Program-made: the position numbers and the translations under genes
From: an uncultured Saprospiraceae bacterium
Lineage (GTDB): Bacteria; Bacteroidota; Bacteroidia; Chitinophagales; Saprospiraceae
NCBI GenBank assembly: GCA_963793295.1
Contig: CAWBZX010000031.1
Span: 45 to 64,044 of the forward strand
Direction: 5' to 3'
Length of the DNA: 64,000 bases
The notes under the pieces: generated by a model
What the model saw: only the letters and a program-made list of their open reading frames with translations
Told to the model about the DNA's origin: nothing
Databases searched by the model: none
Part shown: one piece after another, positions 1-62,253 of the stretch
Position numbering within the stretch: position 1 is the first letter of the stretch
How the letters are laid out: each line of letters opens with the position of its first letter

Positions 1-149
1 AAATCCGGTAGCTTAATTTGTCGAATGTCAAAATAAACGGGTTCATCTGAAAAATGGGCAAACAATCTTTGCTTGAAAACCGATTGGAGGTAATCAAGGG
101 TTTTTGAAACTGTTGATTTGCTGATCGTTTTTTTAAAAGTTGTTGGCAT
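1..149 (-). CDS. 5' end of a gene that continues past the left edge; possibly the eCIS AAA+ ATPase (Afp15/Pvc15 position)
   Basis: ATG at 149..147 lies 9 nt after the stop of the DUF4157 gene. The frame stays open to base 1 (MPTTFKKTISKSTVSKTLDYLQSVFKQRLFAHFSDEPVYFDIRQIKLPD...). Identity is inferred only from gene order in Afp/PVC-type loci; no Walker motif is visible in the 49 codons present. Confidence 0.35.
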   Translation of the reverse strand, partial: MPTTFKKTISKSTVSKTLDYLQSVFKQRLFAHFSDEPVYFDIRQIKLPD

Positions 150-158
150 AATAAAATT

Positions 159-1517
159 TTAAGACCCGCAAACAATAGGAAAGGTTTCGCCCGGCTTAGC
201 ATTGGCCTGATGATATTTGTCAATGGTGTAACCTACACAATCCGTTCTTTTCTTACTGAATGCATCCATTTTATTACCGTATTCTCCTCGTGCTGTTTTA
301 TATGTTTCCACTGCTTTTAGAAAATCGGCTTTTTTCGTGCCAACGCCAGCCGGAAATTTCGGAAATGGATTATCCGTCAGATATTTCAAAAAATCAGTAC
401 CGTGACTTCCTTCATGAAAGCGTAAAGTAGTGTTTCCGGCTTTTTTATCCGCTGCGGTTGTGCCTTTTCCGTAGGCAGAAGTTCCACTTGGTTTTACGGT
501 CAGGCCGTAGGTAGTTTTGATAATTACTTTAGGAATTTTCGGAGGATTTTTGACTTTTGTAATAATTCCATTGGTATCTGTTTCATAGCCTCCATAACTC
601 CAACTTTTAGGTTTCATGCTGATTTCCGTTTCTCCACCACTTTTACCTTTTACAAAAACGTCAGGATGGATTTCAACTTTTACATCATTAATCGTCAAAG
701 AATGGATGCCCGTAGATTTGTTCTTAGTTGCAGTATCTGGGACAGGCGTGCTAACTTTGGAGTCATCTAATTTTTGGATTGATTCTCCTTTTTGCTGTAT
801 GGTATGTGTCAGTTCATGCGCCAATAAGTGTTTTCCTGCTGAAGTTTCAGGATTGTATTTCCCTTTGTTGAAATAAATATCTTTACCATGAGTGAAAGCC
901 TGAGCATTTATTGAAGCACTGAGCTTTTCAGCGTTTACATCTTTATGAATATTTACATTGCTAAAATCAGCGCCAAATCCCTTTTCCATTTCCTGTCTTA
1001 TTCCTTTTGAAAGTGGTTCACCACCGGAAGTTTGGGACCTCAATTTAGTTTCAAAACTTGGAGAGGCTTCTGCAGTCTGATGACTGTTTTCTTTCATTTG
1101 CAACTCTTCTTCCTCTTCTTCCAAAGGCTGCATCTGGAGTTCCTCCTCCTCTTCTTCTAAAGGTTGCATTTGCAACTCTTCTTCCTCCTCCTGCTCCTGA
1201 CGTTGGATTTCAAATTTTGCCTGGGCTTCTTCCTCCTCACAATCCTCGCATTTTGCCTGGATTTTTGGATTTAAAGCGGAGGAAGAATCCTTGGCTTTGG
1301 ACTCGTTGACCAATTGGTCAGCCATTGCATCAGCTTCCTGCTCGAATTTATCGTTGGGTGGTCCGATGGTGAGTTTCGGCTGAACAGTAAAAAATGGATT
1401 GGAGCTCTTTTGATCAAAGAACTTAGTATCTCCGGATTTTTCAGATAAGTTGAAAAAAGGTTTGAAGTTCGTGGCTTCTGAACTTTTTTCGTTTCTTTTT
1501 TTTGAAATTGTTTTCAT
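159..1517 (-). CDS. DUF4157 (eCIS-associated metallopeptidase-like) domain protein with an extra C-terminal HExxH domain; candidate effector or accessory protein
   Basis: N-terminal KLTIGPPNDKFEQEADAMADQLV motif is typical of DUF4157 proteins. DUF4157 core FSNVNIHKD...AQAFTHGKDIYFNKGKY...LLAHELTHTIQQ (HELTH at 804..818). Second HExxH (FHEGSHG, 402..416) lies in an unassigned C-terminal domain of about 200 aa. An acidic tandem repeat (EEEEEELQMQPL, three copies) occupies about 1095..1200. Confidence 0.75.
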   Translation of the reverse strand: MKTISKKRNEKSSEATNFKPFFNLSEKSGDTKFFDQKSSNPFFTVQPKLTIGPPNDKFEQEADAMADQLVNESKAKDSSSALNPKIQAKCEDCEEEEAQAKFEIQRQEQEEEEELQMQPLEEEEEELQMQPLEEEEEELQMKENSHQTAEASPSFETKLRSQTSGGEPLSKGIRQEMEKGFGADFSNVNIHKDVNAEKLSASINAQAFTHGKDIYFNKGKYNPETSAGKHLLAHELTHTIQQKGESIQKLDDSKVSTPVPDTATKNKSTGIHSLTINDVKVEIHPDVFVKGKSGGETEISMKPKSWSYGGYETDTNGIITKVKNPPKIPKVIIKTTYGLTVKPSGTSAYGKGTTAADKKAGNTTLRFHEGSHGTDFLKYLTDNPFPKFPAGVGTKKADFLKAVETYKTARGEYGNKMDAFSKKRTDCVGYTIDKYHQANAKPGETFPIVCGS

Positions 1518-1518
1518 A

Positions 1519-2928
1519 TTAAGCCCATTCTACCTGAAGCATATTTTTCATCCATGGCAATTTGATGATAGAAATGCTCCAGGGTAATTTAGAAATCAAA
1601 ATATCAAAAGTAGCGTGCTGAATAAATAAATTCCAGCTGCCGTTTTCATTTTTTGTGAGTTTTCCTTCTCGTTGTAAAAAGGTATTTCTCAAACTTTCGG
1701 GAGAAGTATTTTTTAAAGCTGACCAGTGTTTTATAACTGCATTTAATAATTGCTCAGCTTCGGCTTTTATTTTTTCATTTAAAATGAGGTCTTTTTCAAT
1801 AGGTACTGAAAGCGGAATATCACAAAGTATTTTGTTTAGGATCAATTCATTTTCAAAAGATTGTGACTTTCCGGTAGCCAAATATTGTAATAAAAGTGCA
1901 GCCTGATTTTTTGCATGGAAGTCTTTAAAAATATTTTTTTCAGTTAAACCTAAACTTTCAAAAAAGAGTACAAAGAAAGGATGCAATAATACGAGACCGG
2001 CATTGATGGTATACCACTCTTTTTGATCAGGTTTTAACTCAGTCTTTCGTTCAGATTTTTTTATTGTTTTTTTAATGGTCTTCTTTTCGGATATTGTTTT
2101 TTCTAAATTCTTTTCAATGTTCAAATGTATACTTTGAACTGCTTTTTGAAGTTTCATTAAAAACGCATTATCGACAATTTTCAATTCATTTAAAACTTTG
2201 TTGACTAGCTTTTTAGAAGAAATAACAGATTTTTCAGACTGTAAAAAGTAGTCGATTGTCGATTTGAAAATATCGATTTTGACTTCTTCAAAGGATTTGT
2301 TTTTAAAAAACAAGCCGTAAAAAACGAACAGCCACAATTGATTGCGGACTTCAGTGGAACGATAAAATGTTGACAATATCTGTTGCAAATCCTTAATAAA
2401 TTCAATCAGGTTTTGGTTTTTGACCAGGGTTTGTAAAAATGTATCACTAAACTGGAAAACCAATCTTTTTAACTTGTCCGGATCATTTCCCAAAATGGAA
2501 GCCACAGCTGGAATTTGATTTTCTCCCATTATTTTGTTCTCTAATTCCATGACTGACTCGGTTTTCGCCCACCAGGGGAAATATCCGTATTCTAGAAAGT
2601 ACCGAAATAGATCAGATTCCATTTCGGATGATTCTTCTGAATTTTGCTGAACTTTTTCCAGCTTTTGAGAAAGCTGCTCTAAAAATTGCCTGATAAACTG
2701 ATCTTCAAAACGGATCGGATCAGCAACATTCATTTCTATGGAAAGGTTGTCCAGACGAATATTCCGATCTCCACCAAATCGATCAAAGACCTTTTCCATT
2801 TCCGGCAGTAGTTTCTGTTGGAAAACTTCAACTGATCGTTTATCTAATTGTTTCCCGTTTCCTTCCGAAGGGGTATTAAACTCCAGGCAAAATTTTTCGA
2901 TGATATGTTTTGAACCGTTTGTCATCAA
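1519..2928 (-). CDS. Putative contractile-injection-system tape measure protein (Afp14/Pvc14 position)
   Basis: 469 aa with a helix-prone, K/E/L/Q-rich composition. Hydrophobic segment INAGLVLLHPFFVLFFESLGL resembles what I recall from Bacteroidota CIS tape-measure proteins. Sits between the baseplate-distal genes and the DUF4157 gene; start overlaps the upstream stop and it ends 1 nt before the next start. Confidence 0.5.
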   Translation of the reverse strand: MMTNGSKHIIEKFCLEFNTPSEGNGKQLDKRSVEVFQQKLLPEMEKVFDRFGGDRNIRLDNLSIEMNVADPIRFEDQFIRQFLEQLSQKLEKVQQNSEESSEMESDLFRYFLEYGYFPWWAKTESVMELENKIMGENQIPAVASILGNDPDKLKRLVFQFSDTFLQTLVKNQNLIEFIKDLQQILSTFYRSTEVRNQLWLFVFYGLFFKNKSFEEVKIDIFKSTIDYFLQSEKSVISSKKLVNKVLNELKIVDNAFLMKLQKAVQSIHLNIEKNLEKTISEKKTIKKTIKKSERKTELKPDQKEWYTINAGLVLLHPFFVLFFESLGLTEKNIFKDFHAKNQAALLLQYLATGKSQSFENELILNKILCDIPLSVPIEKDLILNEKIKAEAEQLLNAVIKHWSALKNTSPESLRNTFLQREGKLTKNENGSWNLFIQHATFDILISKLPWSISIIKLPWMKNMLQVEWA

Positions 2929-11909: not shown

Positions 11910-12359
11910 CTAGACGTTAGAACCTTCTTTTTTATAAAAAGGAAATACAAAATTTTCTCTCGAATTGGTTGCTCTGATTTTATAATTGATCACAATCAAT
12001 AGGATTCCTTCATTAACATTATCTTTTTTGTATTCGATCGATTCCATATCAATTCTCGGCTCATGGTATAAAATGGCTATTCGGATGAGTTCGGTGATGA
12101 ATGTTTCAAAAGTGGTGTCCATAGACTCGAAAACCAGTTCGTCCAGATTGCAACCGTAGTTTGGAACCATAATCCGCTCTCCCAGGCGTGTCGTCAACAG
12201 GATGTTCAAACTGCTTTTGATATCCTCCACATCTGAGATCATTTTCACCCTTTTGGCTTTACGATCAAATGATGGCGGAAAACTCCAACCAGTTCCTAAA
12301 AATGTTGTTTCTGGTGATTTTGCCATATTTTTTAATTTTAAAAGGCGCTTAACCTCCAA
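11910..12359 (-). CDS. GPW/gp25-family baseplate protein (Afp9-like)
   Basis: 149 aa. GTGWSFPPSFD...DIKSSLNILLTTRLGERIMVPNYGCNLDELVFE matches the gp25/GPW signature. Confidence 0.85.
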   Translation of the reverse strand: MEVKRLLKLKNMAKSPETTFLGTGWSFPPSFDRKAKRVKMISDVEDIKSSLNILLTTRLGERIMVPNYGCNLDELVFESMDTTFETFITELIRIAILYHEPRIDMESIEYKKDNVNEGILLIVINYKIRATNSRENFVFPFYKKEGSNV

Positions 12360-12639
12360 TCATTACTGTCAGTGCTCCCGCTACGATTGTGCCTCCATGA
12401 GCAGTTGAATCTCCCATTCTGGCAGCAGGTATTCCCCCAATTAGCACAGTGCCGGAACCCATGACTATCGTGTCAGGAGGTCCAACACAAGTGACCATGT
12501 CTCCGATTACCGCTGCGGGCATACCCGCGATAAGAACCGTTGGAGCACCTGGTCCGATGATAGGCCCGCCAACATGTGGAACTACACCTGTGAACATCGG
12601 ACATACATGCATATCTGTAATTCTTGCTGCTGGTGGCAT
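12349..12639 (-). CDS. PAAR-domain spike-tip protein (Afp10-like)
   Basis: 96 aa and Gly/Pro-rich, with PAAR motifs (MPPAARITD, GIPAARMGD, GMPAAVIGD). Immediately downstream of VgrG. Confidence 0.9.
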   Translation of the reverse strand: MPPAARITDMHVCPMFTGVVPHVGGPIIGPGAPTVLIAGMPAAVIGDMVTCVGPPDTIVMGSGTVLIGGIPAARMGDSTAHGGTIVAGALTVMIGG

Positions 12640-17677: not shown

Positions 17678-18781
17678 TTACAAATAAGTTTCTGAAAATA
17701 TTTTGGTATCGTCTGTTGCGTCTGGTTTGATCATTTTTACATCTGGATTCGGTAGTTTGTCTTTTGCTTCGTTTCCTTTTTTTATTTCTATCAATCCGTT
17801 CGAGGTAAGTGGTTGATTTGCATTAGTTAATAATATTTTTTGGTTATCGGTTAAACCATCATCTTCTTTATCAAAAATGACATTTGCATCAACACCAAGC
17901 GTTTGATCTTTTTCGAAAATGTATTTCCAAATGGTGCTTCGGTTGTTGATACGAATATGGTATGCCGGAGGGCTGCTTTTAAATTCACCTGCAGCAGTTA
18001 ATGGTGCATAATCATTTTGTTCTGTTGTCTCACCAAATAGTTCGGCGAGGCCAAAGATTCCTGGAACGAAAGTGTTGTTGTTGAGGTAAAATTCTTCTGT
18101 GAAACCGCTGCCGTCATCTTCTTTCAAAGTGTACTTTCCAGAAGGGAATCTTCGTAAATCAATCTGATAGGTTTTTATGCCACCGGTCAAATCAACATTT
18201 TCTGAAAGCAACTCTTCTCCGTGAATATTTGTAAGCGTCAATTGTACACTGCCACCCACAGACTGAATCGAATGGTTATGAATGCTGTTGTAAAATTTGA
18301 TTAAATCATCTTCACCAGTATATTTTAAAGAAGGGCTACCTGTCGGCCCCGATTTGGAAAGGGACATGTTATCTGAATCGACTTTTTCGAGATTGTTGAA
18401 ATAGAAAATCTTATTTCTTGGAATGTCTAGATCAAGATCACTGAAATTAAAAAAGGAATTGTCTCTTAATTTCAAGATAAAAGTCAATTTCATAGTATCA
18501 TCTGGTGACAAAAAAGGTTTGTTTTCATTTTCCGGATCAGCGCTAGCAGCAATGATAAAGCCAGATGGCGTTGGAACGTATTTTTGTTTATAATTTTTTA
18601 TTTGGAGTAAACAATCTGGTGTTGGGACGATCTCCATAAAATTCAACACATGATATTGATTGAGTTGTTTTAGCTTTTCCTCATTGTTCATACTTTCAAA
18701 ATTTTGCAGTCCCTTATTTAGAAAATAATGGTGCAAAACATTCAACTCAAATAATATGTTAGCGGAAATCCTAATCTTCAT
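17678..18781 (-). CDS. Uncharacterised 367-aa eCIS protein between cap and sheath genes
   Basis: ORF with an ATGA overlap to the DUF4255 gene, ending 20 nt before the sheath gene. No family recognised by eye. Confidence 0.6.
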   Translation of the reverse strand: MKIRISANILFELNVLHHYFLNKGLQNFESMNNEEKLKQLNQYHVLNFMEIVPTPDCLLQIKNYKQKYVPTPSGFIIAASADPENENKPFLSPDDTMKLTFILKLRDNSFFNFSDLDLDIPRNKIFYFNNLEKVDSDNMSLSKSGPTGSPSLKYTGEDDLIKFYNSIHNHSIQSVGGSVQLTLTNIHGEELLSENVDLTGGIKTYQIDLRRFPSGKYTLKEDDGSGFTEEFYLNNNTFVPGIFGLAELFGETTEQNDYAPLTAAGEFKSSPPAYHIRINNRSTIWKYIFEKDQTLGVDANVIFDKEDDGLTDNQKILLTNANQPLTSNGLIEIKKGNEAKDKLPNPDVKMIKPDATDDTKIFSETYL

Positions 18782-36455: not shown

Positions 36456-39400
36456 TTATAGCCTCGTAACTTTAATTTTTTCACAAAAGGTAGTATCTCC
36501 AATTTCAATCTTCACAAAGTAAATTCCAGCGCTCCAATTGGAAACATCTACTTTTTGATGGGTGTTAGGATCAGAAAACTCAGTCATTAACTGGCCCAGG
36601 GTGTTATAAATCTTGATGCTTTGCATCAACTCGGTTCCATTATAATTAATGTTCAGAATATCATCTGTTGGATTTGGGAAGACCTCTAAATCTGATTCTA
36701 GTGGTGACACCGTACTTGTTGAGATTTCTACGATCTCTGTTGGAGTCCAAAGTGGCACAGGTAATTCATTGAAAGTGATGGCTTTGACATTTTTGATTTT
36801 CACTTCAACTTCTGATTTGCCCAGAATATCGTCTATTATTCCAATGAAGTAACCAACTGTTCCCTGACCACCCACATTTTCCTGGTTGTTTCGGGTCAGT
36901 GCTACTTCGATGATACCATCGGGAGCAAATTTCTTGCTTAGTGTAATCAGATTTTGCCCATTTTCGCCAAGCCAGCTTGAACCAAGTTCAACGGTGACCT
37001 GCGATTCATCCATCATGTCTACATCGAATTCGATGGTGAAGGCCAAACCGTAAATCTCTTCAACCGGAATATTTAGCGTTCCGAGCACAATTGGAGCTTC
37101 GAAAGGTACATTGAGTTCTATTTCATTGGCACCTGGCAAATCAACAAAAAGTGAAGGATCATTTGGCGTGCCTTCAAGAGGAACGAAGATTGGCACCTGG
37201 CCGTGGGTCAATCCGTAGTTTTCAAGGATAGCAACCCGGTCGTCAATATTGACTGTTCCGTCACCATTACAATCCGCATGTTTGAAATTTGTTTCATTTA
37301 AAAACTCATCAGCCCAATTTTCGCCAGGCATTGCAAACCAATCGTTGTTGATCACATCTCGTGCAGGACCTTCGGTGTTGAATGCAATTCCTACGTTTAA
37401 TAAATCAAAATGGTTTGCAGTATTGTCATAGTTAGCATCGCCAGGCCATACATCTGTCAAAGGATCATCCACATTGAAACACACATTGTCTATTTGGAAC
37501 TCAATTCCACCGGTGAATATTGATTCAATATTACCTTCAAAAGTAGCAATACCTTCGTCAGGATTGTTTTCGTCTACATCAAAATGTACGGTTACATTTG
37601 GCGTTAAGGAAAATGAATAATCCTGGTCAGGTAAAACATAGGTTACTGGCTGTTGACCATTGGCCGAGATTGCGAATGGTACCCCACAATTATGATAATT
37701 GAATACTACAAGGGTTGGATTTTCGTCCAATTCATTGAAATCGAAACGCAATCCATTAAACATGAACATTCGGATGCCGCTGGCCATTTCAAATGGAGAA
37801 CAAATATCCTGGTTAGTAGCAAAAAGATAGTCGTAATTAAGATTACCCAAAGGATCCATTACCCCTTCAATTGTAACATATACTCCATTTTCAATTAAAA
37901 GCAGATCCCCTGCTTCACTATTTGGCCCACCATAATTAACGCCGTTGTAAAGGCTTTCAAACTGGATACAGGTATTGGCTCCTTCAAAACAGACCGGTGC
38001 TTCAATTTCAGTGAAATTCCAGCAATCATCAACCAACAAATCGACTACTATGAATTCCAGGACTTGCCCGTTTGCTTCAAATGGTCCTAAAGTTATCGGC
38101 AAATTGTTATAATCAAATTCACCATAATTATTGCCATTGCCAAACACCTGGAATCCTTCATCACTGACATCCTGATAATCAAAATCAAGAATCACATAAA
38201 ATTCTCCATTTTCGCATTCTGTTGTTTCGGCATTTATTTCACCAATAATACATCCGGTATTGTAGCAATCAGGTATTTCAATTATAACTGCATCTCCACA
38301 AACATCATTTTCCTGATCAAATACTGCGAATGGAAGTATAATTCCTCCTGCACAATCTACTTCGTTGTTTGGAATTTGGATGATATAACTGTTTTGTCCA
38401 TATTCGAATGTTGCTAAATAATTGCAAGCAAGTACTTCAAAATGATCGCTTACTCCTGAATATTCAAAAGTGAATTCAACAAAAAGGTCGTCTCCATCAC
38501 AGAATGCCTCTGTAACCAAGTCGTAAATATGACAGGCTTCTTCACAATCTAATGCCTCGAATTCAGTGGTTGCGCAACAGTTAGGCATGTCGTTGATGCA
38601 AACTGTAATCACATCGAAGTCATTGCCGCTTGGTACAAAATGTTGAATAACAACTGGAAGCTCGTTCAAAGCAAAAAAACCGATTGGTTGATTGTTCGCA
38701 TCAAAGACCTCGAAGAAATCATTGCCAGGATTCTGGTATTGGAAATTAATTGCAATGCTGTAAGTTCCATCATCATTACACTCCAACGGATCAACGACTA
38801 ACTCGGTGATGTTGCAATCATTGTTTCCACAGTTTGGTGCTTCGAGAACGACCTCCGCATGACAGCTTTCATCCTGCTGATCGAAAACGACAAATTCTAA
38901 AAGCTGTCCATTACCATCAAATGGTCCAAGCGTAATATAAAGGTCAGCGTAAGCAAAAGTTCCATAGTTGTTTCCATTACCATGGACTTCAAAAGAATCG
39001 CTGGTATTTTGATAATTAAAATCAATATCAACAAGGAATTGGTTATTGTCATCGCAGTCATAAGCTTCAGCGATCAAATCCCAGATTTCGCAATTATTAG
39101 TTGGACAATCGAGTGCTTCAAACTCTGTAGTTGCGCAGCAGTTAGGCATATCGTTGATGCAGACGGTGATTACATCAAAGTTATTTCCGCTTGGGACGAA
39201 GTTATGATGAGTGACTGGCAATTCATTGAGAGCGTAGAATCCAATATTATTACCATTTCCATCAAAAAGGTCAAAGAAATCATTTCCAGGATTTTGATAT
39301 TGGAAATTGATAACAATATTGTAAGTACCATCGTCATTACAATCCAGCGGATCAACGACTAACTCAGTGATGTTGCAATCATTGTTTCCACAGTTAGGTG

Positions 39401-42365
39401 CTTCGAGAACGACCTCCGCATGACAGCTTTCATCCTGTTGATCGAAAACGACAAATTCTAAAAGCTGTCCATTACCATCAAAAGGCCCAAGCGTAATATA
39501 AAGGTCAGCGTAAGCAAAAGTGCCATAATTGTTTCCATTACCATGGACTTCAAAAGAATCGCTGGTATTTTGATAATTAAAATCAATATCAACAAGGAAT
39601 TGGTTATTGTCATCGCAGTCATAAGCTTCAGCGACCAAATCCCAGATTTCACAATTATTAGTTGGACAATCAAGTGCTTCAAATTCAGCAGTTGCGCAGC
39701 AGTTAGGCATATCGTTGATGCAGACGGTGATTACATCAAAGTTGTTTCCGCTTGGGACGAAGTGTTCGTAAGTGATGGGCAGGTCATTGAGAGCATAAAA
39801 TCCAAGGAAATTGCCGTTCCCATCAAAAAGGTCAAAGAAATCATTTCCAGGATTTTGATATTGGAAATTTATAACAATATTATAAGTCCCATCGTCATTA
39901 CAATCCAGCGGATCAACGACTAACTCAGTGATGTTGCAATCATTGTTTCCACAGTTTGGTGCTTCGAGAACGACCTCCGCATGACAGCTTTCATCCTGTT
40001 GATCGAAAACGACAAATTCTAAAAGCTGTCCATTACCATCAAACGGTCCGAGCGTAATAAAAAGATCAGCGTAAGCAAAAGTGCCATAGTTGTTTCCATT
40101 ACCATGGACTTCAAAAGAATCGCTGGTATTTTGATAATTAAAATCAATATCAACAAGGAATTGGTTATTGTCATCGCAGTCATAAGCTTCAGCGATTAAA
40201 TCCCAGATTTCGCAATTATTAGTTGGACAATCGAGTGCTTCAAATTCAGTGGTTGCACAGCAGTTAGGCATATCATTGATGCAAACCGTAATGACATCAA
40301 AATTATTTCCGCTTGGGACAAAGTTATGATGAGTGACCGGCAATTCATTGAGTGCGTAGAATCCAATATTATTACCATTTCCATCAAAAAGGTCAAAGAA
40401 ATCATTTCCAGGATTTTGATATTGGAAATTGATGACAATATTATAAGTACCATCGTCATTGCAATCCAGTGGATCGACTACCAGATCAAAGATATCGCAA
40501 TCGTTATTTCCGCAATTCGGTGCTTCGATGACAACTTCAGCATTGCAACCGTCAATAAGCTGATCATGAATATTGAATTCTAAGGTTTGTCCATTTCCGT
40601 TAAATGGCCCAAGCGTTATAAAAAGATCATCATAAGCGAAAGTCCCGTAGTTATTTCCGTTTCCAACAACAACAAAAGAATCGCTGGAACTTTGAAAGTT
40701 AAAATCTATATCGACAAAGAAAACTTCATTTGGAGTGCAATCACTGGCTTCAGCGACCAGATCCCAAATCTCACAATTGTTTACGGGACAGTTTGGTGCT
40801 TCAAATACTAATTCAGTGTTGCAATTATCATCCTGTTGATCGAAGATGAAAAATTCTAAGGTTTGTCCATTTCCTTCAAAAGGTCCAAGGGTGATGAAAA
40901 GATCAGCGAAGGCAAAGGTTCCATAATTATTTCCATTGCCAAGTACAACAAAGGAATCGCTGGTATTTTCAAAATTAAAATCTACATCGAGAAGGAACTG
41001 GTCATTATCATCACAATCATGTGCTTCCGCAACAACGTTCCAAATTTCGCAGTCAAGCCCTGGACAATACGGCGCTTCGATAACAACTTCAGCGGCACAA
41101 CCATCATTTTGTTGGTCAAAGACGACAAATTCTAAAGATTGACCATTACCTTCAAATGGACCAATCGTTATGACGAGGTCAGCGTAAGCAAAGGTTCCAT
41201 AGTTGTTTCCATTACCATGGACTTCAAAGGAATCGCTGGTATTTTCATAATTGAAATCAATATCTACGAGGAAAAATTCACCATCGCAATCATGTGCTTC
41301 AGCGACTAAACCCCAGATTTCGCAATCAATTCCCGGGCAATAAGGTGCTTCGATAACAACATCAGCGGCACAACCATCATTTTGTTGGTCAAAGACGACA
41401 AATTCTAAAGATTGACCATTACCTTCAAATGGACCAATCGTTATGACGAGGTCAGCGTAAGCAAAGGTTCCATAGTTGTTTCCATTACCATGGACTTCAA
41501 AGGAATCGCTGGTGTTTTCATAATTGAAATCAATATCTACGAGGAAAAACTCGCCATCGCAACTATGCGCTTCAGCAACCAAATCCCATATTTCACAAAT
41601 ATTTACATCACATTGTATCGGGTCGATTACTGTGAAATCTGAACAATTGGGATTGGCCAGATCAGTAACAACAAATTCGTAAATGGTGATTCCATCTCCA
41701 ACTAAGGGTCCAATTGTAACAGGAAGATCATTGTAATCAAAATCACCATAATCAGTGCCATTGCCATGAATGGAAAAAAGATCACCTGTGTTTTCATAAT
41801 CAAAATTAATCGTCACCCAAAAAAGCATCCCGTCACAAGGCCCCGGATCTGCAACTACATTTGAAATTTGACATTGCGGAGTCGGACAGTCTAGTGCAAG
41901 AAATTCTTCAGTTGCACAACAGTTTGGCATGTCATTGATGCAAACCGTGATGACATCAAAATCATTTCCGCTAGGAACAAAGTTTTCGTGGATTATTGGA
42001 AGATCGGCTAATGCATAAAAGCCAATATTATTACCACTTCCATCAAAAAGGTCAAAGAAATCGTTTCCAGGGTTTTCATAATTAAAATTGATGAAAATAT
42101 TGTAAGTCCCATCATTATTGCAATCTTGCGGATCTACGACCAATTCTATTATAGCACAGTCACCTTGCACATCACAGAAAACCGGATCGATGACTGTAAA
42201 TTCACTGCAATTGGGGTCAAGATTATCGGTTACCACAAATTCATAAATAGTAATTCCGTCTCCTTCAAGCGGACCGACTGTAATTGGCAATTCATTATAA
42301 TTGAAAGTGCCATAGTCATTTCCGTTACCAGCAACCGTAAAGAGATCGCTTGGATCTCCTGCCAC
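36456..42365 (-). CDS. Giant secreted Cys-rich tandem-module protein with dockerin-like, cohesin-like and T9SS type A C-terminal sorting domains
   Basis: 16 modules of 91-95 aa in two alternating types. Dockerin-like GDANYDNTANHFDLL...DCNGDGTVNIDDRVAILENYG. Cohesin-like LGTLNIPVEEIYGLAFTIEFD. CTD VFPNPTDDILNINYNG...GIYFVKIEIGDTTFCEKIKVTRL. The reading frame actually stays open upstream to 42521, and the called GTG start has no signal peptide. Confidence 0.85.
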   Translation of the reverse strand: MAGDPSDLFTVAGNGNDYGTFNYNELPITVGPLEGDGITIYEFVVTDNLDPNCSEFTVIDPVFCDVQGDCAIIELVVDPQDCNNDGTYNIFINFNYENPGNDFFDLFDGSGNNIGFYALADLPIIHENFVPSGNDFDVITVCINDMPNCCATEEFLALDCPTPQCQISNVVADPGPCDGMLFWVTINFDYENTGDLFSIHGNGTDYGDFDYNDLPVTIGPLVGDGITIYEFVVTDLANPNCSDFTVIDPIQCDVNICEIWDLVAEAHSCDGEFFLVDIDFNYENTSDSFEVHGNGNNYGTFAYADLVITIGPFEGNGQSLEFVVFDQQNDGCAADVVIEAPYCPGIDCEIWGLVAEAHDCDGEFFLVDIDFNYENTSDSFEVHGNGNNYGTFAYADLVITIGPFEGNGQSLEFVVFDQQNDGCAAEVVIEAPYCPGLDCEIWNVVAEAHDCDDNDQFLLDVDFNFENTSDSFVVLGNGNNYGTFAFADLFITLGPFEGNGQTLEFFIFDQQDDNCNTELVFEAPNCPVNNCEIWDLVAEASDCTPNEVFFVDIDFNFQSSSDSFVVVGNGNNYGTFAYDDLFITLGPFNGNGQTLEFNIHDQLIDGCNAEVVIEAPNCGNNDCDIFDLVVDPLDCNDDGTYNIVINFQYQNPGNDFFDLFDGNGNNIGFYALNELPVTHHNFVPSGNNFDVITVCINDMPNCCATTEFEALDCPTNNCEIWDLIAEAYDCDDNNQFLVDIDFNYQNTSDSFEVHGNGNNYGTFAYADLFITLGPFDGNGQLLEFVVFDQQDESCHAEVVLEAPNCGNNDCNITELVVDPLDCNDDGTYNIVINFQYQNPGNDFFDLFDGNGNFLGFYALNDLPITYEHFVPSGNNFDVITVCINDMPNCCATAEFEALDCPTNNCEIWDLVAEAYDCDDNNQFLVDIDFNYQNTSDSFEVHGNGNNYGTFAYADLYITLGPFDGNGQLLEFVVFDQQDESCHAEVVLEAPNCGNNDCNITELVVDPLDCNDDGTYNIVINFQYQNPGNDFFDLFDGNGNNIGFYALNELPVTHHNFVPSGNNFDVITVCINDMPNCCATTEFEALDCPTNNCEIWDLIAEAYDCDDNNQFLVDIDFNYQNTSDSFEVHGNGNNYGTFAYADLYITLGPFDGNGQLLEFVVFDQQDESCHAEVVLEAPNCGNNDCNITELVVDPLECNDDGTYSIAINFQYQNPGNDFFEVFDANNQPIGFFALNELPVVIQHFVPSGNDFDVITVCINDMPNCCATTEFEALDCEEACHIYDLVTEAFCDGDDLFVEFTFEYSGVSDHFEVLACNYLATFEYGQNSYIIQIPNNEVDCAGGIILPFAVFDQENDVCGDAVIIEIPDCYNTGCIIGEINAETTECENGEFYVILDFDYQDVSDEGFQVFGNGNNYGEFDYNNLPITLGPFEANGQVLEFIVVDLLVDDCWNFTEIEAPVCFEGANTCIQFESLYNGVNYGGPNSEAGDLLLIENGVYVTIEGVMDPLGNLNYDYLFATNQDICSPFEMASGIRMFMFNGLRFDFNELDENPTLVVFNYHNCGVPFAISANGQQPVTYVLPDQDYSFSLTPNVTVHFDVDENNPDEGIATFEGNIESIFTGGIEFQIDNVCFNVDDPLTDVWPGDANYDNTANHFDLLNVGIAFNTEGPARDVINNDWFAMPGENWADEFLNETNFKHADCNGDGTVNIDDRVAILENYGLTHGQVPIFVPLEGTPNDPSLFVDLPGANEIELNVPFEAPIVLGTLNIPVEEIYGLAFTIEFDVDMMDESQVTVELGSSWLGENGQNLITLSKKFAPDGIIEVALTRNNQENVGGQGTVGYFIGIIDDILGKSEVEVKIKNVKAITFNELPVPLWTPTEIVEISTSTVSPLESDLEVFPNPTDDILNINYNGTELMQSIKIYNTLGQLMTEFSDPNTHQKVDVSNWSAGIYFVKIEIGDTTFCEKIKVTRL
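38532..40499. repeat. About 3.5 near-identical tandem copies of a 561-bp unit (type A + type B modules) inside the giant gene
   Basis: Protein residues 623-1278 repeat with a 187-aa period. Plus-strand shadow ORFs at 38982..39362 and 39543..39923 are near-identical and offset by 561 bp. Confidence 0.9.
41052..41597. repeat. Two near-identical tandem copies of a 273-bp unit (type A module) inside the giant gene
   Basis: Residues 257-347 and 348-438 differ at only a few positions. The DNA string CCATCATTTTGTTGGTCAAAGACGACAAATTCTAAAG recurs at 41101 and 41374. Confidence 0.9.
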
Positions 42366-54036: not shown

Positions 54037-57000
54037 ATGAGAAAGCTACGCAAAGTCTTAATGGCAATGCCATTACTATGCCTGTCTGTAAGTATTATCT
54101 TAGCCCAGACCAACGAAAATTCCGTTAATCAAGGATTAAAAGATTTTTATCAAAAAAGAGCAGCGTTCCAGGATGCTAAATCCGGGAATAATTATTATGT
54201 TTTGATCCAGTTTGATAAACTTCCGAATAAAAGCCAAATTTTAGAATTAGAAAAGAAGCATATTCAATTAATTGAATATCGCTCAAAGAATACTTACCTG
54301 GCTATTGTTCCAAAAAATATAGATGAATCGACACTGAAGCGCCTAAATGTAATCGACGTACAGAAGCCGGTTGCGACGCAAAAGCTCTTTGAATCGCTCC
54401 TGAATAAAGACTATCCAGAATGGGCAGTTCAAGAACCTGGAACAGTAGATATCGCAATTGTTTTTTACGAAAAAACACCTCAATCAAAAATACAATCCGT
54501 TCTCAATAATTTTAATATTAATATTCTTGAAAACAAACATCGGGGCAATACAACGATTGTTGGTCGTATTGCTCATAATAAAATTGAAGAATTAACAAAG
54601 TCTGCACTTGTTGCTTATGTTGATGTGATTCAGGAACCCGTTTACATATTGAATCATGAAAGTCGATTAGCTCTGCGAACTAATGTTTTAAACAGCACTG
54701 CACCTGGAGGTTATGGTTTGTTAGGACATGGCGTGGTAGTAGGAGTAGGTGACGGAGGCCAGTTAGGGGAACATTTGGATTTTGGATCTCGGGTATTTAA
54801 CGAAGCAAATGGAACTTATAGCTCTTTTGGAGACCATGGAGACCATGTTGCAGGAATCATTGGAGGTGATGGAAGTCTTAATCCACGACACCACGGAATG
54901 GCTCCTGATTGTCAGCTGGTCACACAAAAAACCAGCTTGATTACCTATAATGTTGAAGAATATTTTAACAATTATGGAATGGTGCTGACGAATAATTCTT
55001 ATGGCACTAGTTTTAACTGCACTACAAATGGTTCATACAATTATTCTGCTCAGACCTTGGATTGGCAGATGCGTGAATTTCCAGAAGTATTACATGTTTA
55101 TGCCGCTGGAAATAGCGGTGGTGGTACCTGTGAACCCTATCCGCAAGGATACAAAACCGTATTAAGATATTATCAAAGTGCAAAAAATGTATTGACGGTC
55201 GGTAATGTTGGAGAAGATAGGATAATTGCATCAGGCAGTAGTAGAGGACCCGTTTTAGATGGGCGTATTAAGCCTGAGATTTGCGGCATCGGAAAAAGTG
55301 TGATTTCTACAGGCCGTGAATATAACTACAAACAAAAAGGAGGGACCAGTATGGCTGCTCCTTCCGTAACAGGTATATTGGCATTATTAGTTGAAAAATA
55401 TAGAAATATTAATGCTGGACAAAATCCGGAAGGTGGACTTTTAAAAGCAATAGCTTGTAATACTGCAGATGATTTAGGTAATCCAGGTCCTGATTATATC
55501 TATGGATTTGGATTGATCAATGCCAGGCGAGCAATAGAAACCCTTGAAGACACAAATTATTTCATAGATAATATTGACCAGGGAGACAATCACTTACACA
55601 ATATTACAGTGCCATCAGATACCAGACAATTGAAATTGATGTTGTATTGGCATGACAAAGAGGCGGCAGTCTATCCTCAAAAAGCTTTAGTAAACGACCT
55701 CGATATTGAATTAATAACGCCAGATGGTTCAACAATTTTACCTTGGGTTTTAAATATTGATCCCTCTCATGTAGCTGATATTGCTAGTAGAGGAAATGAT
55801 ACTTTAAATAATATTGAACAAATTACCATTGATTTACCGATGGCGGGTGATTATACAATCATTGTTAATGGAACAAATATTCCATTTGGCAATCAACGCT
55901 ATTTTGTTACTTATGAAACGATTGCTAATGAAATCGTTGTAACGCATCCTTTTGGTGGGGAAGATCTGATTCCTGGTGATACTGAGTATGTTCAATGGGA
56001 TGCTGATCCTAATAATACTAATTCTTTTAAAGTAGAATATTCATTAGATGGAGGAAATTCATGGCTATTGATTGCTCCTGCAGTTGAGTCGGATAAGCGT
56101 TTTGTTAATTGGACTTTGCCAGAGGTAAGTGTGGATAATGCAATCGTAAGAGTTTCAAAAAATGGAGATGCTGTTTATGGAGAAAGCAATATGTTTTTTA
56201 GCATTCTAAGTCCACCCGAAAACTTTGTTGCCGAGACGGTATGCGAGGGAATGATTGAATTAAGTTGGGATGCAGTGGATTATGCAGTTAGATACCAAGT
56301 TTTGATGGACACTGGAGATGAGATGGCCGTAATTGGCACAACCTCCGACACAAGTTATGTTGTTGATGATGAACTGGGATTTGGTGAAAAGTATTGGTTT
56401 TCTGTAAAAGCTATAAATGTGAATAATCAATCAAGCGAACGCGTCACTGCTCAATATGGTATTCCGGAAGATATCGAGACTTGTCCCTGGGAAGATGATC
56501 CGATAGCGGAGGCCATTATTACTTCAACAAGAGGTCGGGAAAAAACCCAAAAAAGTCTTTCTAATGCGGAATCAATTTCTGTGATGGTGAGAAATATGGG
56601 TACAAACAGTATAGCTGATTTTAATCTTTATTATAGTATTAATGGAGGCGTTCCAATTGAGGAAACATTTACAGGAACAATCGAACCAGGAGATTCGGTG
56701 ATTTATGAATTTTCGCAAACTGCTGATTTATCTGAAGGAGGGATCCATAATATCGATTCATGGGTATTCCTAGATAATGACACCCATAACTTCAATGATA
56801 GTATTGTTGGTCAATATGCTGTGGTTCAGATTGAAAACAAGCCTGTTTCATTACCGTTTTTTGAAAAATTTGATGGAATTGAAAATAATGTTTACACAGA
56901 AAACAAACTAGGTTTGGTTGGAGCGCAGAGATGGGATTTTGAAACACAGGGTTTTGGGAAGCTGATAGCAAATTCATCAGATGGATCACTGGCGATGAGT

Positions 57001-57942
57001 CCAACGGTGTTTTCGCAAGCTACGGATATAGATAATTTTTCCATTCTTACGCTTAATATGACCAACTTCAATGTTGAAAATAAAAAAGTCGGATTAAATT
57101 TTAAATATAAAACTACACCACTGCATGGTACGGTGGAAGCAGCAGAACTTGACAATAAAGTACAGATAAGAGGCTCTGATAATGATGAATGGATTATACT
57201 TTATAAACTGAATGATAATGAATTGGAATGGAAGTCAGTGGAAGGTCTGAATCTGAGTGAATTATTACAGGTAAATGGACAAGAATACAGCTCCAGCTTT
57301 CAAATTCGATTCAGTCAAAATAATATTTCTGAATGTGAGATTGATGAGATTTCATTATTTGATTTGGAGCTAGATACTCCTCACGAAGTCTTACAGATTG
57401 TAAACTTTACAGGTGAGTTGGTAGGTGAGAATGTAATTCTTTCCTGGTCTACGACTATTGAACCAGTAGACGAAATTTTTGAAATACAGGTAGCCGATAA
57501 TTATGATTTAGGAAATGATGATGAATTTGAGGTAATCGGAACTGTAAACGGAATTGGCACAACAACACAACCATATATTTTTAACGACACCAGGCCCGGG
57601 AAAAAAGGAAAAAAGTATTATCGTTTAAAGCAGTTTGATGCTGAAGGCAACTTTACCTTTTCACCGGTGCTTATGGTGGATTATGATTTCCAAAAAAACG
57701 AAGTATTTCCAAATCCTTTCTCTGACTTATTGATTGTTCAGTATAATGGGGAAATTGAAACAACTGTTGATTTATTTCTTTCTGATAATAACGGACGAAT
57801 TATTGAACAATTGAGCGCTATAGCTCAAGTTGGAACAAAGGATATAACATTTGAAATTAATAAAGAATTACCAGCAGGGATGTATTTTCTCCGGATTGTT
57901 AGCCAAGGAAAGGCAAGCTTCCATAAGTTATTTAAAAAATAA
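54037..57942 (+). CDS. S8 (subtilisin-like) serine peptidase with T9SS type A C-terminal sorting domain
   Basis: Catalytic triad contexts VVVGVGDGG (Asp), GDHGDHVAGIIGG (His), GGTSMAAPSVTGILALL (Ser). Signal peptide present. CTD VFPNPFSDLLIVQYNG...GMYFLRIVSQGKASFHKLFKK. Confidence 0.9.
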   Translation: MRKLRKVLMAMPLLCLSVSIILAQTNENSVNQGLKDFYQKRAAFQDAKSGNNYYVLIQFDKLPNKSQILELEKKHIQLIEYRSKNTYLAIVPKNIDESTLKRLNVIDVQKPVATQKLFESLLNKDYPEWAVQEPGTVDIAIVFYEKTPQSKIQSVLNNFNINILENKHRGNTTIVGRIAHNKIEELTKSALVAYVDVIQEPVYILNHESRLALRTNVLNSTAPGGYGLLGHGVVVGVGDGGQLGEHLDFGSRVFNEANGTYSSFGDHGDHVAGIIGGDGSLNPRHHGMAPDCQLVTQKTSLITYNVEEYFNNYGMVLTNNSYGTSFNCTTNGSYNYSAQTLDWQMREFPEVLHVYAAGNSGGGTCEPYPQGYKTVLRYYQSAKNVLTVGNVGEDRIIASGSSRGPVLDGRIKPEICGIGKSVISTGREYNYKQKGGTSMAAPSVTGILALLVEKYRNINAGQNPEGGLLKAIACNTADDLGNPGPDYIYGFGLINARRAIETLEDTNYFIDNIDQGDNHLHNITVPSDTRQLKLMLYWHDKEAAVYPQKALVNDLDIELITPDGSTILPWVLNIDPSHVADIASRGNDTLNNIEQITIDLPMAGDYTIIVNGTNIPFGNQRYFVTYETIANEIVVTHPFGGEDLIPGDTEYVQWDADPNNTNSFKVEYSLDGGNSWLLIAPAVESDKRFVNWTLPEVSVDNAIVRVSKNGDAVYGESNMFFSILSPPENFVAETVCEGMIELSWDAVDYAVRYQVLMDTGDEMAVIGTTSDTSYVVDDELGFGEKYWFSVKAINVNNQSSERVTAQYGIPEDIETCPWEDDPIAEAIITSTRGREKTQKSLSNAESISVMVRNMGTNSIADFNLYYSINGGVPIEETFTGTIEPGDSVIYEFSQTADLSEGGIHNIDSWVFLDNDTHNFNDSIVGQYAVVQIENKPVSLPFFEKFDGIENNVYTENKLGLVGAQRWDFETQGFGKLIANSSDGSLAMSPTVFSQATDIDNFSILTLNMTNFNVENKKVGLNFKYKTTPLHGTVEAAELDNKVQIRGSDNDEWIILYKLNDNELEWKSVEGLNLSELLQVNGQEYSSSFQIRFSQNNISECEIDEISLFDLELDTPHEVLQIVNFTGELVGENVILSWSTTIEPVDEIFEIQVADNYDLGNDDEFEVIGTVNGIGTTTQPYIFNDTRPGKKGKKYYRLKQFDAEGNFTFSPVLMVDYDFQKNEVFPNPFSDLLIVQYNGEIETTVDLFLSDNNGRIIEQLSAIAQVGTKDITFEINKELPAGMYFLRIVSQGKASFHKLFKK

Positions 57943-58748: not shown

Positions 58749-61700
58749 TTATTGAGGAGTAATGCTCACATCACCTTTATGCAATTTTGTTTTGCCATCA
58801 ATATATTCTACTTCAATCAAATACACATAAACTCCTGATTGTAATCTTTGCCCTTTAAAAGTACCATTCCATCCTTCCTCTTCATGGCTAGGAGCAAAAT
58901 CAGTTTTGCTGAAAATTTCCCCGCCCCAACGATCAAATAAATGCATTGATTTGATACTGCTGACATTTTCTCCAGCATAGACTGTGAAGTAATCATTTAC
59001 TCCATCATTATTTGGGGTGAAGGCATTTGGTATATAAACATCTCTCTTTGGTATTACATGCACTATTATCTCATCAGATGCAGTACATCCAAATTCGTTT
59101 GTTACAGTTAAGGTATAAACACCTGATTCGGTTGGTCTTAATGTGGGACTTGGGCAAGTTCTACAACTTAATCCTTCTACTTCTTCCCAGCTATATGTTA
59201 CGCCATCAGTAATATTTACAATCGTTTCGATTTGGAAATAATCCCCAAGCGTTAATTGTATATCGTCATTAATCGCTACCTGAATACCTGGGGTTTGTTC
59301 TATGGTGACGGTTTCTATTGTTGTGCAACCATATTCATTTGAAATGATCACTGAATAAGAACCAGTTTTTAAATTTTCTGCATGATTGCTATAGCTGACA
59401 GGTTTGCCATCATTATTTAACCATTCAAAAGTATAAGTCATTGTTGAATCAAGTAAAACGATTCCTGCTGCTCCATTGTCTCCTTCACAATCTGCTTGAT
59501 CAACAATAATACTTTGGACTTCAGGAACTTCATTTTTGCCCATTTCAATTTGTCCGATTGCAGAGCATCCGATTGCATCTGTTACCGTCACTGTATATTT
59601 ACCGTAGGATAAATCTGTAAGCAGGTTTTTATTTTCTCCATTCATCCATTCATAAGAGTAAGGTTCTGTTCCTCCGATACCTTCAATTTCAATAATTCCA
59701 TCCGCATTGCCACAATTTTCAAATCCAATTTCTAAAATTTCAACAGTTACATGATTCACTTTAATAGAGATGGGATTGGAAATAGCTGTCGACAATGATT
59801 CACAGGCATCAGGGTTTGTGATCAGACAAGTCACAGTTTGCTGACTACTTAGACCAGTTGTGATAAAAATGGAGTCGTTAGTAGAAACCGGAGTACCATC
59901 AATCATCCACTGGAAAGAGGCGTTTAATCCAAAATTGCTGCCAGATGCAGTAATAATAACTTCTTCTCCTGCACAAATTTCAGAAGTGTTTGATTCAATA
60001 TTAATTACTGGACTGATGCCGTCTGTGATAATTATTGATACTGGTTCAGATTCAACTACATTATTTTCGGAGCAGGTTATGTCAGCAGTTAAAATACAAG
60101 AAACAAGCTGGCCATTCAATAGTTGGCTGGTTGTAAATTCAGGTAAGTTAGCACCAACATTTAAACCATCGATTTGCCATTGAAACATGGGGTTTTGTCC
60201 AAAATTATTTCCAGAAGCGATAAAAGTAATTGGTTCGCCCGGGCAAGTTTCAGTAACATTTGGTGTGATAGTGATTGATGGAGGTGTTGAAGATATTACG
60301 TTCACAGAAATAGTGTTTGTGATGATTGTGTTTGTCGTAGCACAATTTTGATTAGTGTTGATAATGCATGTTATGTTTTGTCCCTCAGAAAGAATATCTG
60401 TTGTAAAAACCGGACTGTTATTTCCTGTATTAACGCCATCGATTTGCCATTGGAAACTTGGATTGTTGCCTAATTGGCTACCGATAACTGTAAAAGTTAT
60501 TGTTTCTCCTTCACATATTATTGCCTGATCCGCTTCGATGATTGCTTCTGGATTAGCTGAAGGGACAATGGTTAAAATAATTGGAGCTGATGATATGGTA
60601 TTTGCTGATAAACAATTATTATCGAAAGTCAATAAGCAATTTACGGAATCCTGATTGATAAGATTTGAAGCAGTAAAACTCTCTGTGTTTGCACCGATTA
60701 CCGGAACACCATTTATAGTCCATTGGTAGATTAGGTTAGTTTCATTTTCGATACCTGAAGTTATGACATTGAAAGTAGCCGATTCATTTTCACAAAAAGT
60801 GTTTTCATCTGCAATAATTTCAATAGAAACATTTGAAACAGGATTAATTGGTGCAATGAGTACTGGATTGGAAATGTGTGAATAAGAAGTGCAAAAAGTT
60901 GATAGTGTCAATTTACATTCAACTACGTCACCATCCATTAAACTTGAACTTGTGAAAGAAACATCAGATGCTCCGATTACATTTATACCATTAACAAACC
61001 ATTGTAACTCTGAGCCTGCCATGTCATTTTCAATAGTGGTGTTAAAAGTGTAAATAATATCATCGCAAGGGCCTTCTTGTGTTGCCTCAATTGAAACGGT
61101 AGGAAGGGCAGAAAGTGGCATGTGGGTTACAAGATAGTTTAATATGTTGGCTATTAATTCTTCGCTATTTAATGTACGGACCCAGTCCTGGTCACTTGTT
61201 GTAATTATTTTTCCATAAGTTGGCGTAACCGGGCAAAATATAAAGCCCCAATCAAAACCGTTATACTCTAGAATTGAATGAATCGTTGAATCGCCAGACC
61301 CGTAAGTTCCATACCAAAAATAAGTAAGGGCAGTGACGTTGTTTAGGTTATCTGCCAGGTCCCCAACTACATACATTGGCGCCAAACTACCTGTCAATTC
61401 TCCATCCCAGCTAAAGCTTCCTCCGAGGTTATTTATCAAATAGCTAAATAACTCATTTCCAGGAAGGTTGGTTAAATATTCTGATTGAATGTAAAGATTG
61501 CCACCTTGTTCGACAAATTGTTTGATAGTTTGTTGACGGTTTTCCGGTAAATTAATCAAGCCAGATGAAATAATTAAGATATCTGAGTTACCCAAATTAT
61601 TGATGTCGTCTAGAAATTCTTGAGAAGAGATGGTCGCATTATAGCCAAGGCTAATGGCTATGTTTTGCCAGTTTTCATCCATTTTATGGAGCGGATGGAT

Positions 61701-61796: not shown

Positions 61797-62253
61797 GGAT
61801 ATTGGGATTCGTTTCCTAGGGGAGAAGTCTGTTAATAAACCAATTGTCTTCGGAGGGAAAGTTTTGTAAAATTGTAAATGGAGGGTGGTTAAGTTTTGGA
61901 TAAGTGATTCAAATATAGTAGCTAAACTAAAACAGCGCAAGTTTTATTTCTTTTATTCAATCCTTTTACTCGAATTAATGTGACAGGCAATTTTGGTTAT
62001 AAAAATTTGAAAGTCAATTATTTGAGTAATTATTAAGAATAAATATGACAAAATAATATATTGAAATATATCAATCTTAACTAAAAATGACCTTTCTTTT
62101 TTAAAAACAGGTATCGTTTTAGCAATGAAGAATGGTTTTGCTATTTTTTTGAAGTTTCGTGACTTGCCAAAATTTGACAAACACCAACTTAGGAAAGTGT
62201 GCTATTATTTTAAAAATTCAGCAAAGTTGATTTTGTGCAATATCGAGAGGTCT

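Follow-up and report, generated by a model that had tools for sequence, protein, structure and literature searches.

An unclassified HExxH domain at the end of a DUF4157 protein of a Saprospiraceae contractile injection system and of other toxin-type carriers

The 64,000-nt stretch of DNA analyzed here (the window; positions 45 to 64,044 of contig CAWBZX010000031.1, assembly GCA_963793295.1) originates from an uncultured Saprospiraceae bacterium and harbours an operon for an extracellular contractile injection system (eCIS). Near the end of this operon lies a gene for a DUF4157 protein of 452 amino acids with two HExxH motifs, one in the DUF4157 domain and the other in a C-terminal domain. An initial annotation, made from the sequence alone, proposed that the protein is either an effector loaded into the particle or a protease involved in its maturation. 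This raises the question which of the two functions the protein has, and what kind of domain its C-terminal part represents. We found that the C-terminal domain belongs to a large family in which the second HExxH motif is invariant, and that it also occurs at the end of Rhs, TcB-TcC and WXG100 proteins. Both observations support the proposal of a loaded effector.

A large family with an invariant second HExxH motif

The C-terminal domain comprises 207 amino acids. Word-indexed searches, which returned 17 and 28 relatives only, suggested that it is rare. This was overturned by an exhaustive profile search covering 1.84 billion cluster representatives, in which 675 representatives came up for the family, with 629 reaching E <= 1e-10. 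A genome scan revealed 59 loci with the domain in at least 12 phyla. DUF4157 is present in 38 of these loci, and in about 21 of them eCIS structural genes are located within 10 kb. Collections of plasmids and phages did not contain any match to the domain.

Conservation was counted in 313 distinct sequences aligned to the domain profile. The residues H368, E369 and H372 of the second HExxH motif are identical in all 312 distinct homologues with a residue at these positions, and thus the variability of the motif, which the initial annotation had named as grounds against its proposal, was not found. A protein with the composition of the one studied here would by chance contain 0.028 HExxH motifs; a chance origin is in any case excluded by the identity of the three residues in all 312 homologues. 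The loop just before the HExxH helix is similarly conserved, with G350 and G352 in 313/313 and D357 in 310/313 sequences. Further conserved residues are D286 (308/308), P386 (311/311) and, among the 313 aligned sequences, T335 (309), Y349 (306) and S347 (304). Position 426 is occupied by D in 296, by E in 8 and by H in 6 sequences, i.e. in 310/313 altogether. The following residue, Cys427, is accompanied by a cysteine in the tail in each of the 214 sequences that have it, while 43 of the 58 sequences without Cys427 also lack the tail cysteine; this co-occurrence would fit a disulfide or a paired site. The motif set of the domain reads STPxP ... PD ... SxYGxGTTxxD ... LxFHExxHG ... P ... Y ... 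D[C]VG.

The proteins carrying the domain differ strongly in their N-terminal parts, while the domain itself ends not more than 30 residues from the protein end in 322 of 325 sequences (in the following, P and L are our labels for homologous proteins and for loci). According to Pfam, 70 of 134 family members carry DUF4157. In three proteins the Rhs core TIGR03696 is located directly N-terminal to the domain (P0066, P0128 and P0163), and in P0120 it is preceded by WXG100. At L008 it closes a protein of 2,468 amino acids composed of SpvB, TcdB_midN, FG-GAP and RHS parts, which is a TcB-TcC fusion, and at L044 a standalone copy is encoded directly upstream of a vgrG gene of type VI secretion system (T6SS) type. 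In the Rhs proteins and in the Tc (ABC) toxin fusion, the domain thus occupies the position of the encapsulated toxic payload; the carrier in the window is a DUF4157 protein of an eCIS in place of an Rhs cocoon. The domain is exchanged among carriers of the eCIS, Rhs, Tc and type VII secretion system (T7SS) kinds. Since Rhs, TcB-TcC and WXG100 proteins are among its carriers, we regard it as a polymorphic toxin module and not as a particle-maturation enzyme.

Several further arrangements were observed among the carriers. Some have a short N-terminal leader with an LQxxxGN motif; in its LQRxxGNxAVxRLL-type form it is present in at least 23 of the 325 sequences, namely in homologues without DUF4157 (P0025, P0030, P0048, P0058, P0061, P0102, P0158 and others); possibly it serves other lineages as a signal for delivery. 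In P0102, P0112, P0130, P0134, P0164 and P0078, a helical N-terminal module of about 150-250 amino acids without Pfam match ends with '...IP(D/E)W(A)' right before the domain; it could be an adaptor or a delivery domain not characterised so far. P0065 (L022, 9428-12379), one of only 3 among 325 sequences with an internal domain, shows a reversed order with an EQEAD-type motif, the HExxH toxin-type domain, a second EQEAD motif, DUF4157 and a long tail. This order shows the EQEAD motif to be a module separable from DUF4157. On the metagenome contig L063 (286-2877), a WXG100-Peptidase_C2 (calpain-like) protein, an open reading frame (ORF) of 158 amino acids and P0120 are arranged in tandem and followed by an FHA-domain protein, an arrangement reminiscent of a toxin array of the T7SS. 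One metagenome-assembled genome of the Planctomycetota has two separate copies of the domain (L038, L042), and two distinct paralogues with HESCH and HEACH were found in Piscinibacter sakaiensis 201-F6, in two assemblies (L051, L053). Toxin cassettes typically occur as several paralogues in one genome.

Predicted fold and attempts at classification

A first AlphaFold2 model of the C-terminal domain, based on 12 sequences, had a predicted local distance difference test (pLDDT) score of 83.6, with about 70 for the other four models. With 49 diverse sequences, a pLDDT of 94.4 and a predicted template modelling score (pTM) of 0.89 were reached, and all five models scored at least 92. The predicted fold consists of seven beta-strands, a short helix, the HEGSH helix (residues 365-382, or 120-137 in the numbering of the domain), a loop, a 30-residue helix (396-425) and a last short helix. 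D426 lies immediately beyond the long helix and, as suggested by the helix boundaries, would adjoin H368 and H372, provided that the two long helices are packed in antiparallel orientation.

The statement of the initial annotation that the C-terminal domain fits no family was borne out by searches with Pfam, NCBIfam, PDB sequences and Foldseek, which were all blank. In the 134 family members analyzed with Pfam, sporadic weak matches appeared in one or two members only, and no model reached E <= 0.01, including M91 (PF14891) and the Tox-MPTase families. NCBIfam gave no match to the domain, and a profile search against the PDB sequences nothing below E 0.9. Foldseek was negative for the first model as well as for the second; against BFVD there was nothing significant (best E 0.009, TM-score 0.24). 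Homologues are named at NCBI as DUF4157 or eCIS core domain-containing proteins only, and a literature search for 'HEGSH' returned irrelevant matches only.

Two specific assignments were also rejected. The domain is not a diverged copy of DUF4157 (hhalign probability 0.9%), and at the given sensitivity it is not an M91/NleD-like or M35-like toxin, in view of the absence of a Pfam match in the 134 members and of a hhalign probability of 1% with a DUF4157 protein that bears M91 and M35 annotations. As in zincins, the HExxH motif is located on an alpha-helix in the confident model, while the zincin fold or a profile similarity to a known peptidase family was looked for with Foldseek, the PDB profile search and Pfam and was not found. 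The active-site pattern therefore looks zincin-like, the fold does not. It is conceivable, albeit rather doubtful, that the domain represents a structurally new class of HExxH metalloenzymes with a non-zincin fold and with a chemistry or target unlike those of the known peptidase toxins, which bacteria of at least 12 phyla would deliver by four unrelated routes (eCIS, Rhs/T6SS-linked, Tc and T7SS). To our knowledge there is no Pfam model for Tox-MPTase1, and the negative Pfam results do not set the domain apart from it. With about 190 amino acids and a seven-stranded beta region, the domain appears larger than the small Wss1-like Tox-MPTases as they were described (PMC3482391).

Cargo effector or maturation protease

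The closest known counterparts are the cargo proteins Cgo1 and Cgo2 of AlgoCIS, which fill the tube lumen and leave it on contraction (Xu et al. 2022, PMC8894135). According to a 2026 preprint, AlgoCIS loading needs the N-terminal region of the cargo and the AAA+ ATPase Alg15, but not DUF4157 or the C-terminal domain (bioRxiv 10.64898/2026.05.27.728243). Compared by description, Cgo1 of Algoriphagus machipongonensis (ALPR1_12695, A3HTB0, 498 aa) and Cgo2 are composed, like the protein analyzed here, of a disordered N-terminal region, a central DUF4157 domain and a variable C-terminal domain, and their genes are likewise located after the tape measure gene and before the AAA+ gene. However, AlgoCIS has two cargo genes, while one is visible in the window. 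The C-terminal domain of Cgo1 also contains a second HExxH motif, a likeness by motif description and not by sequence alignment; among the 120 best full-length matches to our protein, there was no Algoriphagus protein. In this light, the remark that it is not understood what DUF4157 does in eCIS holds in part only, since cargo in the tube lumen has been shown to include DUF4157 proteins, whose loading needs the N-terminal region and an AAA+ ATPase. Similarly, the emphasis which the initial annotation put on two HExxH motifs in one protein was overstated, because Cgo1 has two and Zhang et al. (2012) list several HExxH toxin domains behind DUF4157.

The three-part architecture of AlgoCIS-type cargo, with a low-complexity N-terminal region, DUF4157 and a C-terminal domain, is present in the protein (Table 1). 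Residues 1-47 have a basic start, a net charge of +4 and three FF motifs, and the PFF...FF pattern recurs in homologues (alignment A6). In the region of the following motif KLTIGPPNDKFEQEAD, E59 and A62 are invariant in the same alignment, and L49, D56, D63 and A66 are conserved in at least 90% of the sequences. Among the 325 family sequences, 152 have a motif of this type N-terminal to the C-terminal domain, and four of these 152 are without DUF4157. The acidic linker (residues 71-165) has a net charge of -21 and 76% disorder-promoting residues by composition. It contains a genuine tandem repeat of 36 nt (2.6 copies, 75% matches by Tandem Repeats Finder), but of the three copies annotated before, only two are full EEEEEELQMQPL units and the third is partial. 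The DUF4157 domain matched PF13699 (formerly DUF4157, now eCIS_core, and the 'PVC-metallopeptidase' of Zhang et al. 2012) with E 2.5e-32 and 111.3 bits at a cutoff of 22. Its closing signature HExxHxxQ is present as HELTHTIQQ (residues 234-242), and H234, E235, L236, T237, H238, Q241 and Q242 are all invariant in alignment A6.

Based on these observations, we consider it probable that the protein is a cargo effector with an N-terminal loading signal for the AAA+ ATPase, an accessory DUF4157 domain and a portable C-terminal toxin, which is probably a metal-dependent hydrolase. By analogy to AlgoCIS, the N-terminal region, which is basic, rich in Phe and of low complexity and carries the KLxxGxPxDxxEQEAD motif, would be the loading sequence, and the AAA+ ATPase encoded directly downstream would recognise it and thread the unfolded protein into the inner tube's lumen, out of which sheath contraction would expel it into the target. 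The central zincin-like DUF4157 domain would be an accessory module, for which the functions of a self-releasing peptidase or of a chaperone were proposed. The toxic part would be the C-terminal domain. In its candidate active site, H368 and H372 could serve as metal ligands and E369 as general base, the third ligand being probably D426, past the end of the helix 396-425 in the model; the G350-x-G352-T-T-x-x-D357 loop would lie next to this site. As its chemistry, hydrolysis that depends on a metal is the most likely, and the bond cleaved in the target cell would probably be a peptide bond.

Several points weigh against this explanation. Two cysteines conserved as a pair in the manner of a disulfide are not usual in a protein that acts in the reducing cytoplasm. 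The confident model did not retrieve anything significant from PDB with Foldseek (best E 0.15, TM-score <= 0.19), and since the profile searches match no peptidase family, the peptidase assignment derives solely from the motif and its conservation. A conserved immunity gene was sought downstream of the domain in the 59 loci, in one WXG100 contig and in one Rhs contig and was not found; none of the small downstream ORFs is conserved beyond close relatives. For PVC-type toxins, an adjacent immunity gene is commonly absent (Zhang et al. 2012, PMC3482391). Finally, the toxicity of Cgo1 in E. coli depended on neither of its two HExxH motifs (PMC8894135). The lack of fold or profile likeness to any zincin despite a confident model, the result with Cgo1, and the cysteine pair, which suggests a stability-driven fold, would also be in line with a cargo protein in which the HExxH motif holds a structural metal or a ligand, and which is toxic, for example, by binding or sequestering its target. 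We think that such a non-hydrolytic domain is unlikely, because a purely structural site does not need the glutamate of HExxH, which is conserved in 312/312 homologues, because the adjacent GxGTTxxD loop is invariant, and because the restriction of position 426 to D, E and H completes a pattern that is expected of a catalytic metal centre.

If instead the protein were not delivered as a toxin, it could act in the producing cell as a processing or maturation protease, in which one or both HExxH sites cleave eCIS components or cargo. The nearly universal presence of DUF4157 in eCIS loci (Geller 2021), its prediction as a processing ('releasing') peptidase (Zhang et al. 2012, PMC3482391) and the position of the gene among assembly genes, flanked by those for the tape measure and the AAA+ ATPase, agree with this. 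However, AlgoCIS particles assemble without Cgo1 and Cgo2, both of which reside in the lumen of the tube, and DUF4157 is dispensable for AlgoCIS loading. Moreover, only a part of the eCIS loci encode the C-terminal domain, which is also the last domain of Rhs, TcB-TcC and WXG100 proteins in systems without an eCIS to mature. This patchy distribution, together with the presence in eCIS-free systems, makes a maturation role of the C-terminal domain unlikely, and the corresponding proposal of the initial annotation found no support for this part of the protein. Altogether, we regard a maturation protease as quite improbable. Still less credit is due to an accessory factor that is not delivered, such as a component of a tube plug, or a chaperone or an adaptor that serves another effector, with the C-terminal domain as an interaction module. 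A chaperone function of DUF4157 in cis or in trans was speculated on by Danov et al. (2024), and a second, larger DUF4157 protein adjoins in several related loci (L004, L037). In the window, however, the AAA+ gene follows directly and no second effector is visible, and the far end of Rhs and Tc proteins is the place of toxic payloads and not of adaptors.

Zhang et al. (2012, PMC3482391) described proteins in which an N-terminal PVC-metallopeptidase, the proposed releasing peptidase, is followed by variable toxin domains; several of these are HExxH families (Tox-HopH1/NleD-like, Tox-ALF, Tox-MPTase1-5) shared with Rhs, TcdB/TcaC and WXG carriers. The protein analyzed here agrees with these polymorphic toxins in its constant DUF4157 and variable C-terminal toxin-type domain, in the sharing of the latter with Rhs, TcdB/TcaC and WXG100 proteins, and in the often absent immunity gene. 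DUF4157 is a marker of eCIS toxins, and 983 predicted DUF4157 effectors are without a second annotated domain (Geller 2021, Danov 2024). Like these eCIS-associated toxins (EATs), our protein bears DUF4157 and has its gene in an eCIS operon, at the 3' end, and it belongs to the class of the 983. The validated toxin EAT14 is composed of DUF4157, LysM and Transglut_prok (Geller 2021, Danov 2024); Transglut_prok is also found in a neighbour of one homologue (L020), while the C-terminal domain studied here is a different, unannotated family.

The protein thus appears to belong to the known DUF4157 effectors of eCIS, and its C-terminal domain family appears to be the undescribed part, Cgo1 and Tox-MPTase1 having been compared by description only. 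These two comparisons, with the C-terminal domain of Cgo1 and with Tox-MPTase1, bear most on the newness of the domain. Among the eCIS effectors predicted so far, DUF4157 proteins with an unannotated toxic part make up about half (Danov 2024). One such part is now defined by its boundaries, an invariant motif set, a confident model and about 675 sequence clusters. It is a concrete target for biochemistry and a natural payload to consider in the engineering of AlgoCIS-type particles, while the picture of how eCIS work is unchanged.

The gene, its operon and the neighbouring genes

A public collection contains, on a contig of 64,284 nt, a protein identical to the product of ORF 159-1517. In the translation, all motifs listed in the initial annotation were found at the positions given there, among them FFNLSEKSGDTKFFDQKSSNPFF (residues 21-43), CVGY (427-430) and IVCGS (448-452). 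The features of the gene and of its direct neighbours are compiled in Table 1.

Table 1. Features of the gene under study and of the adjoining genes in the window.
Feature	Coordinates	Strand	Description	Basis
Gene under study	159..1517	-	complete, 452 aa, DUF4157 eCIS cargo-type protein	ORF list, translation
N-terminal region	1377..1517	-	residues 1-47, candidate loading sequence	sequence, composition
Conserved motif KLTIGPPNDKFEQEAD	1329..1376	-	residues 48-63	translation
36-nt tandem repeat	1095..1187	-	acidic EEEEEELQMQPL linker	Tandem Repeats Finder score 130, translation
DUF4157 / eCIS_core / 'PVC-metallopeptidase' domain	783..1016	-	residues 168-245	PF13699
First HExxH	804-818	-	HELTH, residues 234-238, within DUF4157
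C-terminal domain	162..782	-	residues 246-452, unclassified HExxH toxin-type domain	profile search, model
Loop G350-x-G352-T-T-x-x-D357	447..470	-	just before the HExxH helix	conservation
Second HExxH	402..416	-	HEGSH, residues 368-372 (within FHEGSHG, 367-373)	translation, predicted helix 365-382
D426 and C427	237..242	-	D426 candidate third metal ligand	conservation, helix end
C450	168..170	-	tail cysteine co-varying with C427	co-occurrence count
Upstream gene	1519..2928	-	contractile injection system tape measure protein	PF19268 CIS_TMP, E 8e-109
Downstream gene, cut by the window edge	1..149	-	N-terminus of AAA+ ATPase (Afp15/Alg15 type)	identity to L060 protein

The operon is located on the minus strand and extends from about 19434 to the window edge. 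It starts with genes for a Pvc16_N cap protein, a cap adaptor homologue, the sheath, two gp19-type tube proteins and a CIS_tube protein. These are followed by genes for VgrG, a PAAR-like ORF of 96 amino acids, gp25, a baseplate J-like protein and two large baseplate or fibre proteins, and at the end by CIS_TMP, the gene under study and the truncated ORF. The best matches of the sheath are the thylakoid contractile injection system (tCIS) of Anabaena (7b5h, 6.9e-158) and then AlgoCIS (7adz, 2.6e-156). The gene at 17678-18781 (minus strand) encodes a 367-aa protein without Pfam match, which is homologous to the AlgoCIS cap adaptor (7adz_1A, E 4e-19; Anabaena All3326, 3.8e-14) and therefore places the system in the AlgoCIS/tCIS clade. 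From the sequence matches of its sheath and cap adaptor to the AlgoCIS structures, the operon is thus assigned to the same eCIS clade of AlgoCIS and Anabaena tCIS. The PAAR-like ORF (MPPAARITDMHVCPMF...; 12349-12639, minus strand), located between the VgrG and gp25 genes, was under the initial ORF cut-off of 100 amino acids.

The stop of the tape measure gene and the start of the gene under study are separated by one nucleotide only, and the truncated ORF starts 9 nt after the latter, which is indeed the penultimate visible gene as annotated. The first 48 residues of this ORF share 65% identity with the N-terminus of a 451-aa AAA+ ATPase (PF00004), which is encoded after the closest orthologue (P0207, L060). 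Owing to this resemblance, the local order can be read as tape measure, DUF4157 protein, AAA+, an order that is also present in L016 and L033. The genes found downstream in the eCIS loci fall into three groups, encoding an AAA+ ATPase, a conserved protein of about 215-220 amino acids without Pfam match, or a second DUF4157 protein. The last was seen in L020 (10449-12068, 540 aa, Transglut_prok), L004 (10820-15712) and L037 (10616-14194), the latter two encoding 1,193-1,631 amino acids, and this arrangement resembles the Cgo1/Cgo2 pair.

An Rfam search of the window gave no match. Outside of the operon, the window encodes three very large proteins whose C-terminal sorting domains (Por_Secre_tail, CHU_C) of the type IX secretion system point to a host from the Bacteroidota. 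They are located at 36456-42365 (minus strand), 54037-57942 (plus strand) and 58749-61940 (minus strand); in the one of 1,969 amino acids, the sorting domain is the sole recognisable domain.

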